In this document: piece after piece, positions 11,344 to 14,633 of the stretch | How the letters are laid out: each line of letters starts with the position of its first letter | How positions within the stretch are numbered: position 1 is the first letter of the stretch | Source: Candidatus Bathyarchaeia archaeon | Lineage (GTDB): Archaea; Thermoproteota; Bathyarchaeia; Bathyarchaeales; Bathycorpusculaceae | Length of the DNA stretch: 14,633 nt | Assembly (NCBI GenBank): GCA_038882975.1 | Contig: JAVZNE010000015.1 | Span: forward strand, 1-14,633 | Direction: 5' to 3' | Notes under the pieces: model-generated | Told to the model about the DNA's origin: nothing | Database searches by the model: none | What the model saw: the letters and a program-made list of their open reading frames with translations, nothing else | Made by a program: the position numbers and the translations under genes

Positions 11344-11469
11344 ACGTTTCCCTCTATTTATGATATTTACTTTAACACATTTATTTATTCTATATTTTCT
11401 ATTTACGATAGATATATATCTTTCGCTTTGCTCTATATATCACGCAGATGTAAAGGAGGCTGATATGAA
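11344..11469. promoter_or_regulatory. Divergent promoter region with a near-perfect 20-bp palindrome
   Basis: CGATAGATATATATCTTTCG at 11406-11425 (one mismatched pair), a second TATATATC at 11434-11441, and RBS GGAGG before ATG 11470. Confidence 0.6.
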
Positions 11470-12060
11470 ATGTCTGAATGGAAAACCGTAAGCATAAGGC
11501 AAGAGCTAATAAAAGAAATCGAGAGACTCCTCAGAACAGGACGCTACAGAAGCATATCAGAATTTGTCTCGGAAGCCATAAGGCTGCGCTTAGAAGAGCT
11601 GATGCGGGCTGAGGGGATTCCAGCCGCAAAGCGTGAAGAGCTTTTGGCTATTCCGGAGCAGTTGCTATACACGCCGAAGCACACTTGGGCGCAAATAACT
11701 CCTGAAGGAAACATCCGTGTGGGTGTTTCAGATTACGCCCAGAGGCATCTTAAAGGCATTGCAAATATAATGACTGAACCCGTTGGGAAGGAAATAGCCA
11801 AAATGGAACCTTTCGGTGTGGCTGAAACTTGGATGTTTATGTTTGATTTATACGCGCCCGTAAGCGGCAAAATTGTTAAAGTTAACGAACAATTAAAGGA
11901 TAAGCCTTACCTGGTAAATGAGGACCCATACGGCGAGGGCTGGATAATCGAAATTAAGCCCAAAAACTCTTTGACGCTTGAGGAGGAACTCAAAAGTCTT
12001 CTAAGCTCTAGAGAATACAACAAGTGGGTTAACAAGCTTGAGGGAAGACTCCGCGAATAA
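11470..12060 (+). CDS. Ribbon-helix-helix (CopG/Arc/MetJ) domain fused to a glycine-cleavage H-protein-like domain lacking the lipoyl-lysine
   Basis: aa 1-45 WKTVSIRQELIKEIERLLRTGRYRSISEFVSEAIRLRL fit RHH. aa ~61-190 (YTPKHTW, VGVSDYAQ, LYAPVSGKIVKVNEQL, VNEDPYGEGWI) fit GcvH. The canonical ESVKA reads ETWMF here. Confidence 0.88.
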   Translation: MSEWKTVSIRQELIKEIERLLRTGRYRSISEFVSEAIRLRLEELMRAEGIPAAKREELLAIPEQLLYTPKHTWAQITPEGNIRVGVSDYAQRHLKGIANIMTEPVGKEIAKMEPFGVAETWMFMFDLYAPVSGKIVKVNEQLKDKPYLVNEDPYGEGWIIEIKPKNSLTLEEELKSLLSSREYNKWVNKLEGRLRE

Positions 12061-12095
12061 ACCCCTCCATTTCCCCCTTTTCTTTTGAAAATTTT
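12061..12095 (+). terminator. Archaeal pyrimidine/oligo-T terminator candidate
   Basis: CCCCTCCATTTCCCCCTTTTCTTTT immediately follows the stop codon. Confidence 0.5.
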
Positions 12096-12180
12096 ATGTT
12101 ATATTTATGTCAAGCTTGATTTAGATGGCTTAATATATCTGGTTTAACATTCAAATATGCTTCTAAGAAGGCTGATAGTC

Positions 12181-13899
12181 TTGACGGAAAAGCCCTCCCA
12201 AGAGGTTAGGAAACTACCACCTTGTCGAACAGCATGTCCAGCGCATGTTAATGTTCAGGCTTATGTGGCTCTTATCCAAAGGGGCAAGTTTAAAGAGGCT
12301 GTTGAAGTCATAAGGCGGGACATGCCCTTCCCAGCCATCTGTGGAAGGGTCTGCTTCAGCCCATGCGAGGATGCATGTGCACGGGTCAACCTTGACCAGG
12401 CAGTGGCTATACGCGCCTTAAAGAGGCTTGTGGCGGATATTGAGCGTGAACAGGGAAGGGTTGTCGCCGAGCCGGTGCCAAAGAAGTACAGCGAAAAAAT
12501 AGCTATAATCGGCGCTGGACCAGCCGGTTTGACAGCTGCCTACGAACTTGCAAAGTTGGGTTATCCGGTCACTGTTTTTGAGCGGATGGCTGAGCCCGGC
12601 GGCATGATGCGTTATTGCATACCGGACTTCCGCCTAGAAAAATTTGTTGTTGAAAATGAAATAGCCTACATTAAGGATATAGGCGTTGAAATTAGAACTG
12701 GCGTTGAGTTCGGCAAGGACGTGACTATTGAAAGCCTTAAGAAGGATGGTTATAAGGCAATTTTCTTTGCCATCGGCACACAATTGGGCATGAAGTTAAA
12801 TGTGCCAGGCGAGGACTTAGAAGGCGTAATAAACGCTGTAGACTTTTTAAGGGCCATAGCTCTGGGCAAGAAAATAACTGTTGGCGAAAGAGTAGCAGTC
12901 ATTGGCGGAGGCAACACAGCCATAGACGCCGCGAGGATGGCTAAAAAACTGGGCGCCAAAGAGGTTATGATTCTTTATAGGCGATCTCGCGAGGAGATGC
13001 CAGCACTCCCACACGAGGTAGAGCTCGCCGAGAAGGATGGGATAAAGTTCCATTTCTTGGTGGCTCCAAAGCAGATTATAGGCGGAAATGGAAGGGTTAA
13101 GGCGGTTGAATGTTTAAGGATGCGTTTGGGCGAACCTGACGAAAGCGGAAGGCGACGTCCAATCCCAATAGCCTTTTCAGAACACCAGTATGAGGTGGAC
13201 ATGGTTATTCCGGCACTTGGGCAGATTGTTGAAACATCTGTTTTGCCTCCAGAACTAGTAAACAAGGAGAAGCGGGGACCGCCACTGCAAGTGGACCCAC
13301 TGACATTGGAAACTAATGTTCCGGGGGTTTTTGCTGGTGGGGATGTTGCCACTGGTCCAGCAAGCATTATTGAGGCTGTTGGTGCTGGGAAGCGTGCAGC
13401 GGTTTCTATACACCGTTACTTGAGGGGTGAGGACCTGCGGAAGGATAGGGAAGAAGAGAAGATTGAGGAGACGACCTGGGTTAAGGATTGGCGGTTGTTG
13501 GACAAGAAGGAGCGTAGATACGATGCTCCAATAGAGAAGCCTCACCTGAGTTTCGAGGAGGCAAGAGAGTATCTTGAAAAGCTAAAGCGTCAAGCACGAT
13601 TTGAGGCTTTCCGCTGTCTCGGATGCGGGCCATGTGCAGAATGCCTCGCCAGCATGGACCTATGCGAGGGCGATAAGGCTGTTGTGGATGAGGGCAAATG
13701 TGTGGGTTGCAACGTCTGCGCAGTTGTCTGCCCAGTAGAAGCCGTTAAAAAGAACGAAAAGGGCATAGCCCAAGTAAACGAAGACCTTTGTAAGGGCTGC
13801 GGGCTCTGCGCTGCACGCTGTCCAGAAAGGGCCATAACTATGAAGAAGCTTTCCAACGAGCAAATTCTCATAATGGTTTCAACAGCCTTGGAGAGGTGA
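12181..13899 (+). CDS. GltD/NfnB/SudA-like FAD- and NAD(P)H-binding Fe-S oxidoreductase with an HdrA-type C-terminal 2x[4Fe-4S] domain
   Basis: PCRTACP...CGRVCFSPCEDAC, IIGAGPAG (FAD), VIGGGNTAIDAAR and YRRSR (NADP-type), GVFAGGD, EAFRCLGCGPCAEC, and two CxxCxxCxxxCP motifs. The start is TTG 12181 (preferred, after an AGGCTGA leader) or ATG 12157. Confidence 0.88.
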   Translation: MTEKPSQEVRKLPPCRTACPAHVNVQAYVALIQRGKFKEAVEVIRRDMPFPAICGRVCFSPCEDACARVNLDQAVAIRALKRLVADIEREQGRVVAEPVPKKYSEKIAIIGAGPAGLTAAYELAKLGYPVTVFERMAEPGGMMRYCIPDFRLEKFVVENEIAYIKDIGVEIRTGVEFGKDVTIESLKKDGYKAIFFAIGTQLGMKLNVPGEDLEGVINAVDFLRAIALGKKITVGERVAVIGGGNTAIDAARMAKKLGAKEVMILYRRSREEMPALPHEVELAEKDGIKFHFLVAPKQIIGGNGRVKAVECLRMRLGEPDESGRRRPIPIAFSEHQYEVDMVIPALGQIVETSVLPPELVNKEKRGPPLQVDPLTLETNVPGVFAGGDVATGPASIIEAVGAGKRAAVSIHRYLRGEDLRKDREEEKIEETTWVKDWRLLDKKERRYDAPIEKPHLSFEEAREYLEKLKRQARFEAFRCLGCGPCAECLASMDLCEGDKAVVDEGKCVGCNVCAVVCPVEAVKKNEKGIAQVNEDLCKGCGLCAARCPERAITMKKLSNEQILIMVSTALER

Positions 13900-13906
13900 A
13901 ATAGAA

Positions 13907-14633
13907 ATGGAGTCGTCTAACCCTCCAAAAATTGTTTGTTTCATGTGTAATTGGACCTTCTGCGAAGAAGAGATGCGTGTTCCTTACAATGTCAATCTTA
14001 TTCGCGTTATGTGTGTCGGGAGGATGGACCCAGCGCTTGTTCTGGAAACCTTTGCTAATGGAGTTGAGGGCGTGCTGCTTGTTGGGTGCAAACCCCCAGA
14101 CTGCCACTTTGTTGACGGAAACCTCCACGCTGAACGTGCCGTTAAAATGTTGAAGAAGCTGCTGGCTTTGACTGGACTTGAGCCTGAACGACTGAAGCTT
14201 CTGCTGGTCTCGCCATTAGAGGATAAAAACTTCAGCTATCACGCTAGAGAGTTCTCTGAAGAAGTTTGGAAGCTTGGAAATTCTCCGCTCAGCAAAGAAG
14301 AGATTATGGCCAATCTGATAGTGGCTAAGGAGGCGGCTTCAGCCTTTAGGCTTCGCGTCTTGCTGGGAAGAGAGGAAGAACTGACAGAATTCATGAACGC
14401 TTATGGCGAGAAAATAGAGGAAGAAGAATTTGACGCTTTATTGGATGATGTTGTTAGGGCTGAGTTCATCCGCTACAAAATCCACTACTTGACGAGGATT
14501 AAGCCCCGCTCTGTTAAGGAGTTAGCCCAAATTCTCGGGATAAAGCCGTCTGCTGTTTTGAGGCATATAACGAACATGAGGCGGAAGGGCATGATAACCC
14601 TAGACCACGTTGAAGGTTACACGCCCCTGTATA
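13907..14633 (+). CDS. mvhD: Extended MvhD/FlpD-family [2Fe-2S] protein with a helical linker and C-terminal winged-HTH-like domain (partial; not in the ORF track)
   Basis: Manual translation after RBS GAGGTGA: MESSNPPKIVCFMCNWTFC...IRVMCVGRMDP...GCKPPDCHFVDGN...GLEPERL...KLGNSPL...NAYGEKI...KPRSVKELAQILGIKPSAVLRHITNMRRKGMITLDHVEGYTPLY. There are 242 codons with no stop before the edge. Confidence 0.88.
   Translation, partial: MESSNPPKIVCFMCNWTFCEEEMRVPYNVNLIRVMCVGRMDPALVLETFANGVEGVLLVGCKPPDCHFVDGNLHAERAVKMLKKLLALTGLEPERLKLLLVSPLEDKNFSYHAREFSEEVWKLGNSPLSKEEIMANLIVAKEAASAFRLRVLLGREEELTEFMNAYGEKIEEEEFDALLDDVVRAEFIRYKIHYLTRIKPRSVKELAQILGIKPSAVLRHITNMRRKGMITLDHVEGYTPLY

Follow-up and report, generated by a model that had tools for sequence, protein, structure and literature searches.

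The subject of this report is a protein that public databases call GcvH and that we think is probably a regulator of transcription. It is encoded in a stretch of 14,633 nucleotides (hereafter the window) from a Candidatus Bathyarchaeia archaeon (GenBank assembly GCA_038882975.1, contig JAVZNE010000015.1), and its 196 residues (P0001) join a short N-terminal segment of the ribbon-helix-helix (RHH) type to the fold of the glycine cleavage H-protein, in which the lysine that would carry lipoate is replaced by methionine. We read this RHH-GcvH-like protein as probably an uncharacterised regulator of the RHH class, with its H-domain kept as a binding module that needs no cofactor; its DNA binding, its target genes and the binding role of its H-domain are what we infer. 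The database name is wrong. NCBI and JGI records label proteins of the P0001 type ‘glycine cleavage system protein GcvH’, the named homologues that we listed (P0004–P0120) are all called GcvH or glycine cleavage system H protein except for P0073 (‘hypothetical protein’), and a look-up in the ESM Atlas returned only Bathyarchaeota clusters, titled ‘Glycine cleavage H-protein domain-containing protein’. This naming has come about because NF002270, a loose GcvH subfamily model of NCBIfam, lets such proteins through: P0001 passes it with 125.3 bits against a cut-off of 117, and fails the equivalog model TIGR00527, with 104.6 bits against 115.85.

The first-pass annotation of this DNA, made from the letters alone, had already proposed an RHH segment fused to an H-protein domain whose lipoylation hairpin has become ETWMF, and both parts of that proposal hold. 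Pfam GCV_H matches P0001 over residues 65–188 with E=5.5e-31 (107.5 bits against a cut-off of 22.2), and a search against the sequences of solved structures returns H-proteins as its top matches, with E-values down to 4.9e-25 and identities of 33–39%. An AlphaFold2 model, built from 12 family members, has a mean predicted local distance difference test score (pLDDT) of 83.8, rising to 87–96 across H-domain residues 101–190, and the matches that Foldseek ranks highest for it are the Escherichia coli H-protein chains 3a8j_E, 3a8i_E and 3ab9, with target-normalised template-modelling scores of 0.90–0.93. The motifs that define the fold are mostly retained, G-x-S/T-D-Y-A and P-x-S-G among them. 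What has gone is the site of lipoylation. In the HMMER alignment to the Mycobacterium H-protein chains 3ift and 3hgb, ‘vestksvsd’ stands over ‘aetwmfmfd’, which puts Met122 (codon ATG, 11833–11835) in the place of the lipoyl lysine.

The same loss runs through the family. Of the 36 diverse relatives aligned in A3, which is the basis of every count out of 36 given here, none has lysine at column 122, and the hairpin has a clear signature of its own: E119 in 35, T or S120 in all 36, W121 in 33, M or W122 in 30 and F123 in 30, with ESWWF, EDWLS, ETVARWPLVI, ETPGWWY and ETPAWCF as further versions. A second canonical residue has changed with it. Column T72 corresponds to the glutamate of the H-E-W motif, which in H-proteins contacts the loaded lipoyl arm, and it holds T, M, V, I, L or A in 36/36 rows; among 152 H-domain rows drawn from 151 representatives, glutamate occupies it in 82, including only 2 of the 44 rows that have no lysine in the hairpin. 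The tip of the hairpin bears the swinging arm of an H-protein, and on this alignment evidence it has been turned into a conserved hydrophobic patch, Trp-Met or Trp-Phe, leaving lipoylation at the canonical site impossible in RHH-GcvH-like proteins. We considered whether another lysine might have taken over, a possibility raised at first pass, and rejected the idea, given that no column of A3 is an invariant lysine and the best of them, K134, reaches 31/36 rows. Thiol redox sensing by P0001 itself is likewise unlikely, and we set it aside: the protein has no cysteine, as is true of 24 of the 36 rows, P0001 included.

The N-terminal segment had been predicted to fold as an RHH, and it does model as one in the form of a dimer. 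Presented with the first 58 residues alone, Pfam RHH_1 scores 22.1 bits, over its cut-off of 20.5, and it matches 12 of 20 family N-termini at E<=0.01; a profile of the family N-termini finds, weakly, the RHH of Helicobacter NikR in the PDB (E=0.007, residues 7–43 against 15–51). A homodimer modelled from residues 1–58 received a score of 0.54, where the best of three controls had 0.00. The mark of 0.54 was attained by 20/30 proteins solved as pairs of the same chain and by 1/23 solved as single chains, counts that are only rough because a custom alignment was supplied. Agreement of contacts between runs was at least 94%, with a partner pLDDT of at least 70, and the contacts of lowest error (7:7, 6:8, 8:5, 9:5 and 10:4, together with 33/36/37 against 33/36/37/40) describe, in the model, an antiparallel two-stranded ribbon (4–10 on 4–10) with helix B packed on helix B. 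This is a likeness to solved RHH dimers, and it may stem from the memory of the modelling program, because RHH dimers are already among the solved structures. The strand itself is well conserved, with W4 in 31/36 rows, K/R5 in 32, T6 in 27, V/I7 in 35, S/R8 in 31, I/V9 in 32 and R/K10 in 31, and it alternates polar or basic residues (T6, S/R8, R/K10) with hydrophobic ones (V7, I/V9), the pattern of outward and inward residues expected of an RHH ribbon that reads DNA.

Homologues put to rest a worry raised at first pass, that the fusion or the loss of lysine might be peculiar to one assembly. A word-indexed protein search gave 1187 matches at E<=0.001, and the best 120 of these are 195–202 residues long, 82–100% identical to P0001, from Bathyarchaeia or Bathyarchaeota wherever they are named, and furnished with the ETWMF hairpin in 120/120 cases. 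An exhaustive search of representatives clustered at 50% identity gave 7900 matches at E<=0.001 and 16 at E<=1e-30; an RHH segment is present in 16/151 (the best 150 representatives and the query), and the combination of RHH and lysine-less H-domain is found in about a dozen such clusters, with divergent ones at 33–45% identity still holding both domains. On this pattern of conservation we take the fusion to be under selection as a family. In a quick tree, weakly resolved and with most forks unsupported, all 15 RHH-linked H-domain rows fall within one group of 29 (Shimodaira–Hasegawa-like approximate likelihood ratio 85), which leaves out the canonical GcvH of the host genome. The group's remaining 14 rows are lysine-less, either fragments or stand-alone forms, with the exception of P0150, whose hairpin VETKTVISFD has a lysine one position ahead of the aligned column.

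To gauge distribution, we surveyed 301 Bathyarchaeia genomes sampled evenly over the class, and among the matches listed both domains were found in 23/301, all in the order to which the window belongs: 11 in family f1 (the window’s own genome included), eight in f2 and two each in f4 and f5. Listed matches weaker than about 1e-46 have the H-domain only, and the ones inspected are canonical GcvH with its lysine; a further 403 weaker matches lie outside the listing. In one f4 genome (G062, locus L027 at G062:C65, about 1492–2093 on the minus strand) the RHH and the H-domain (hairpin ETWLF) occupy overlapping frames of 78 and 122 residues, for which a frameshift, an assembly error and a genuine split are all conceivable. 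A member of the divergent cluster P0131 is labelled Candidatus Baldrarchaeota by its source, and when the genome contigs were scanned with P0131 no relative turned up. Families f4 and f5, and three named Bathyarchaeia records, hold two paralogous fusion genes in tandem in the same slot, the upstream type with an ESWWF or ETVARWPLVI hairpin, a shorter loop and an EYLERD insert in the linker, which is a stretch of insertions and deletions throughout A3, and the downstream type with the ETWMF hairpin. A look-up for holders of matching RNA listed none. Contigs of relatives, mostly less than 95% alike, also cover the whole stretch in two hot-spring runs that are filed as metatranscriptomic and flagged as probably DNA, and we draw nothing from them, as the depth of a contig gives no ranking of its genes.

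The host has a glycine cleavage system of its own. A canonical GcvH of 139 residues, with the hairpin VESVKAV, is encoded on contig C1 of the same genome, as is GcvT; GcvPA and GcvPB are on C7 and two genes of the BPL/LplA family on C5, and no GcvT or GcvP gene lies within the window. A third match of the GCV_H type, on C5, is a biotin carrier (EAMKM). That canonical GcvH, GcvT, GcvP and ligases are all encoded separately makes the fusion an additional, diverged paralogue. On C1 (G000, L001:1465-3234) the canonical GcvH gene is followed after 4 nucleotides by an open reading frame of 448 residues, which reads from its translation alone as similar to pyridine-nucleotide-disulfide oxidoreductases and is a possible stand-in for the L-protein.

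Turning to the company that the gene keeps (Table 1), hdr/mvh synteny had been suggested at first pass, and this is right in part: the gene is indeed linked to hydrogenase and heterodisulfide reductase (Hdr) genes, but its most constant partner is a different one, a regulator-like protein with an AbrB-type N-terminus and a PhoU domain. This AbrB-PhoU gene is the divergent upstream neighbour in the loci of 20/20 relatives (one cut by a contig end), and it is adjacent and divergent in L054, L056 and L058–L060 also. In 16/17 further genomes the coordinates place the two genes side by side and divergent, and in the seventeenth (G348) they are on different contigs. AbrB-PhoU proteins are reportedly included in listings of the archaeal transcription-factor repertoire. 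Paralogues at 24–31% identity are present in 121/121 genomes sampled from the order, with the specific orthologue (at least 47%) confined to a subset; 16/21 further genomes with that orthologue hold the fusion, 0/6 with only a 35–38% relative do so, and G309, with a partial match of 57%, has the fusion.

Downstream, the GltD-like flavoprotein gene follows the fusion in 15/20 loci (one of them partial), and the five loci without it all belong to genus g23. In the tandem-pair lineages only 25–48 nucleotides separate the pair from the GltD-like gene, and there the three are probably co-transcribed. Wherever the contig continues, the GltD-like gene is followed by MvhD-HTH, HdrA-like pieces, MvhD, HdrC, HdrB and MvhG(A). 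The window ends within a longer conserved cluster, in which MvhD-HTH is succeeded in relatives (L035, L037, L038, L041, L042, L046–L050, L053, L054, L056, L058 and L060) by HdrA-like genes (three pieces), a stand-alone MvhD, HdrC, HdrB and MvhG/MvhA, a second Hdr/Mvh set only 33–47% identical to the first. On the other flank, 9/20 loci have a set of MvhG/MvhA, HdrA-MvhD, HdrC and HdrB that resembles the window’s. In L045 the downstream genes are TauE/SafE, an uncharacterised open reading frame, NuoE-, NuoF- and NuoG-like genes and an MvhGA-like hydrogenase, and L040 and L044 have MvhG/MvhA-like matches at the same distance. MvhD-HTH is a second protein of this neighbourhood in which a redox subunit is fused to a fold of DNA-binding type; it is seen in the relatives’ loci L035–L060 as well, and many genomes of the order have it at full length, some of them genomes where we did not find the fusion. 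Strict co-occurrence of the fusion with the GltD-like/MvhD-HTH/Hdr cluster is rejected on that account. Since the AbrB-PhoU pairing is constant and MvhD-HTH occurs without the fusion, the fixed unit is therefore the divergent pair of regulators, which usually lies beside hydrogenase/Hdr operons.

Table 1. Positions of the RHH-GcvH-like gene, its parts, its neighbours and the intergenic elements, numbered from the first letter of the window
Feature	Position	Strand	Basis and remarks
RHH-GcvH-like gene	11470..12060, stop included	+	196 aa (P0001); open reading frame with GCV_H and RHH_1 matches
Ribbon-helix-helix segment, residues 1-47	11470..11610	+	strand about 4-10 (WKTVSIR), helix A, turn GRYRS, helix B
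Linker, residues 48-64	11611..11661	+	length varies among family; pLDDT 69 for block 51-60
H-protein (GCV_H) domain, residues 65-188	11662..12033	+	Pfam coordinates; Foldseek matches to solved H-proteins
Remodelled lipoylation hairpin E119-T-W-M-F-M-F-D126	11824..11847	+	alignment to solved H-proteins; Met122 codon 11833-11835
AbrB/MazE-type N-terminus + PhoU-domain protein, 357 aa	10270..11343	-	Pfam PhoU 6.4e-15; MazE_antitoxin/AbrB 5e-4
GltD/NfnB-like NAD(P)-binding flavoprotein, C-terminal 2x[4Fe-4S] ferredoxin domain	12157..13899	+	Pfam; NF009410 526.6 bits
MvhD domain + winged-HTH-like C-terminus (MvhD-HTH), runs off window	13907..14632	+	FlpD 4.2e-32; HTH_5/HTH_20 1e-5
Divergent promoter region common to fusion and AbrB-PhoU	11344..11469 (126 bp)		sequence; candidate TATA box and operator
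TATATAT boxes, 21 nt apart	11413-11419 and 11434-11440		sequence
AAGGAGG	11453-11459		sequence
TATTTAC motif	close to AbrB-PhoU start		sequence
Spacer before GltD-like gene	12061..12156	+	sequence
C-rich/oligo-T run	about 12074-12086	+	sequence; putative terminator
Direct repeat TATGTTA / TATGTCA, 11 nt apart	12095-12101 / 12106-12112	+	sequence
TATA-like TTAATATATC	12130-12139, about 25 nt ahead of next start	+	sequence; putative promoter

The region between the two divergent genes is conserved in a manner that would suit a regulator. Across the last 85 nucleotides of 22 loci, the conserved columns comprise both TATATAT boxes and AAGGAGG, even where the proteins are down to 44–60% identity. 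One of the boxes is presumably the TATA box and the other a candidate operator. In five loci (L041, L042, L046, L047 and L049) a small open reading frame, which starts MEKPIRS and looks like a short membrane protein, is inserted between the divergent pair, and in these the TATATAT boxes remain beside the fusion gene. ATATATC occurs four times in the window, three times at 11411–11441 and once before the GltD-like gene, and 3/200 shuffles reach four. We tried it as an operator for a wider regulon and rejected it, as there are only these four matches in the window and three are in the gene’s own promoter.

If the protein is a regulator, as we favour, the pieces could fit together as follows. The N-terminal 45–50 residues would dimerise to form a two-stranded ribbon that reads DNA, and the H-protein fold, once a carrier of the lipoyl group, would now be a binding module that works without a cofactor. 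For the protein as a whole the most likely binding site is its own promoter, in the divergent region of 126 base pairs common to it and the AbrB-PhoU gene, and the two regulators together probably control the neighbouring hydrogenase/heterodisulfide-reductase operons. The H-domain would set the regulator’s activity through a protein partner or a ligand. Several observations weigh against this reading, and they concern both the fold and the setting. On whole P0001 the RHH_1 match (residues 6–43, E=0.0018, 18.6 bits) stays below the cut-off of 20.5; the top PDB match of the family N-terminal profile is the VASP coiled-coil tetramerisation peptide (E=0.004), above NikR; and the AlphaFold monomer makes residues 2–23 one helix, not a strand and a helix. 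Both TATATAT boxes could be basal promoter elements, with no operator among them. As for the setting, no fusion was found in 5/21 genomes that have the AbrB-PhoU orthologue (one has it at a contig edge), some genomes that yielded no fusion (G072, G184 and G187, for example) do have a full-length orthologue of MvhD-HTH, and the second tandem-pair copies of G118 and G223 lie amid unrelated genes (PNPOx, BpsA-GNAT, HAD and an Na/H exchanger).

The rival that deserves most attention, and one that we regard as unlikely, is that the protein does not bind DNA at all and is an accessory or adaptor subunit of the adjacent redox complex, in which the H-domain docks on a subunit of the Hdr/CCG type or on a flavoprotein, much as H-proteins and LbpA do on their own enzymes, and the RHH only dimerises. 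It would account well for the constant position near Hdr, Mvh and GltD-like genes and for the short gaps of the tandem-pair lineages, with their probable co-transcription. It also has precedents of a kind, since the neighbouring MvhD-HTH joins a redox-subunit fold to one of DNA-binding type, and P0132 demonstrates that lysine-less H-domains can be a physical part of Hdr-like enzymes. A mere dimeriser, however, has no need of the pattern of a DNA-reading ribbon, and the strand keeps it (K/R5 in 32/36, T6 in 27/36, R/K10 in 31/36); moreover, the most constant neighbour is a regulator gene and no enzyme subunit, redox clusters exist without the fusion, and the second copies sit apart from redox genes. 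Very unlikely, we think, is the proposal that the protein is a carrier still, through some other residue or prosthetic group, and so a specialised H-protein, or a shuttle like LbpA that serves the Hdr system next door. In its favour are an intact, well-conserved fold and the pass on NF002270, but the hairpin lysine is absent from 36/36 rows, no other lysine is invariant, cysteine is missing from P0001 and from most of the aligned rows, the H-E-W glutamate is replaced throughout, TIGR00527 is failed, and a canonical GcvH is available elsewhere in the genome.

RHH proteins are also met with as antitoxins, and there are weak matches that lean this way: TIGR02606, of the ParD type, at E=4.1e-4, ParD_antitoxin in 3/20 family N-termini, and weak matches of the N-terminal family profile to CopG/Arc/MetJ antidote chains at E=0.013–0.02. 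That the protein is the antitoxin of an addiction module, or of a type II toxin-antitoxin pair, is nevertheless highly improbable, and we rejected it. The scores all fall far under the family cut-offs (TIGR02606 gives 20.3 bits against 46.2), no toxin-like gene is adjacent (the neighbours across loci are AbrB-PhoU and the GltD-like gene), and the C-terminus is a globular H-domain of 125 residues where a toxin-binding tail would be looked for. To an assembly error, a fusion artefact or a gcvH pseudogene in decay we allow next to no chance. The split frames of L027 are the one observation in its favour, and the conservation data refute it: 120 listed homologues of 195–202 residues, from many assemblies and sources, have an identical hairpin, the frames are free of stops in 23 genomes, and clusters as divergent as 33–45% identity keep both domains.

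What, then, might the H-domain of such a regulator bind? The candidates put forward at first pass were GcvL/P/T, lipoate ligase or Hdr, with the domain as a mimic, or else a ligand or redox site. Other lysine-less H-domains offer some guidance. P0132, a protein of 1391 residues, combines three tandem lysine-less GCV_H domains with FAD_binding_4/FAD-oxidase_C, a 4Fe-4S dicluster and two CCG (HdrB/HdrD-type) domains, and so ties cofactor-free H-domains physically to chemistry of the Hdr type. P0249 (264 residues) has a TIR_2 domain (3.8e-26) ahead of GCV_H, with leucine replacing lysine in the hairpin VESVLAASD, and P0142 and P0190 are tandem double lysine-less H-domains. There are published links too: for Culexarchaeia it has been proposed that the GcvH encoded within a hydrogenase/Hdr cluster might carry the disulfide for HdrB (PMC9723716), which lends something to the adaptor idea as well, and LbpA carriers, which resemble GcvH, are linked to the Hdr-like systems of sulfur oxidisers (sHdr) and essential to them (PMC6067878), which does the same for the idea of a carrier. 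Because of the hydrophobic hairpin, architectures such as that of P0132 and these published connections between GcvH or LbpA and Hdr, docking of the H-domain on an Hdr-type or flavoprotein subunit is a reasonable guess, and we would put it no higher. A bolder proposal, and a distinctly doubtful one, is that the H-domain acts as a decoy carrier. Its Trp-Met-Phe hairpin would sit in the lipoyl-arm site of Hdr (CCG-type) or of the GltD-like protein, whose occupancy or redox state would free or capture the DNA-binding protein, with MvhD-HTH doing likewise at the MvhD site. If that were so, HdrB in these non-methanogenic Bathyarchaeia would have a lipoyl group bound to protein as its disulfide substrate, and lysine-less H-domains fused to CCG/FAD-oxidase enzymes and to TIR would constitute a general class of enzyme-docking signalling modules.

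Among known systems, the nearest in build is NikR, which has a short N-terminal RHH followed by a globular effector domain in one chain, just as P0001 does; the Helicobacter protein supplies the best regulator match of our N-terminal profile, and the P0001 dimer is modelled with the usual antiparallel ribbon. The C-terminal domain of NikR binds nickel, whereas that of P0001 is an H-protein fold, and the relevant models score P0001 far under their cut-offs (NF001884 at 13.3 against 119 bits, NF002815 at 11.9 against 83) and over residues 6–48 only. An RHH regulator with an effector domain is thus a known design, and what would be new is the H-protein domain, not known in this role, as the C-terminal effector. 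GcvH itself shares the fold and a clear sequence homology with P0001, but differs in having the lipoyl lysine and the H-E-W glutamate and in having no RHH; the gene of P0001, for its part, is not linked to gcvT or gcvP. The GcvH-L of Streptococcus pyogenes, whose biology involves lipoylation and ADP-ribosylation, is another divergent H-like protein with a role outside glycine cleavage. It lacks an RHH and is far more distant from P0001 than canonical H-proteins are; of the H-type chains that match significantly in structure, its chain 5a35 ranks last (E=5.6e-6, 15% identity). LbpA and the GcvH of the Culexarchaeia Ehe/Hdr cluster resemble our case in that an H-protein-type gene lies beside heterodisulfide-reductase-type genes, but they are described as lipoylated or presumed to be so (PMC6067878, PMC9723716), whereas P0001 lacks the canonical site for it and has a domain of DNA-binding type. 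Its neighbours are Mvh/Hdr-type genes and a GltD-like flavoprotein rather than the sHdr sulfur-oxidation set, with LbpA set apart on its description only. The first-pass annotation knew of no characterised regulator with the RHH-GcvH architecture; we agree, having found no description of such a fusion, or of a lysine-less GcvH regulator, in the literature searched, whose supplementary files may hold annotations.

Why should any of this matter? Bathyarchaeia are abundant archaea and essentially uncultured, and we know of no disulfide substrate, and no regulation, for their complexes of the Hdr/Mvh type. The RHH-GcvH-like family offers a concrete handle on them, namely a small soluble protein, a candidate target region of 126 base pairs and a fixed partner regulator. 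If our reading is right, the H-protein fold would here serve for the first time as a transcription factor’s effector domain, adding to the signs that cofactor-free H-domains have been reused as binding modules near redox enzymes. There is a practical side as well, in that the GcvH misnaming makes metabolic reconstructions of these archaea count too many glycine-cleavage genes.

Two further features of these loci deserve mention. Beyond AbrB-PhoU, in L058 (7910–8269, minus strand) and L060 (2153–2305, minus strand), a small gene encodes an RHH N-terminus like that of the family, 46–53% alike across about 55 residues, with no H-domain attached. Finally, in the spacer ahead of the GltD-like gene, the oligo-T run, the TATGTNA repeat and the TATA-like box recur in the same order in f1 loci, and the TATGTTA/TATGTCA repeat, as a candidate operator, could serve one of the three regulators encoded here.

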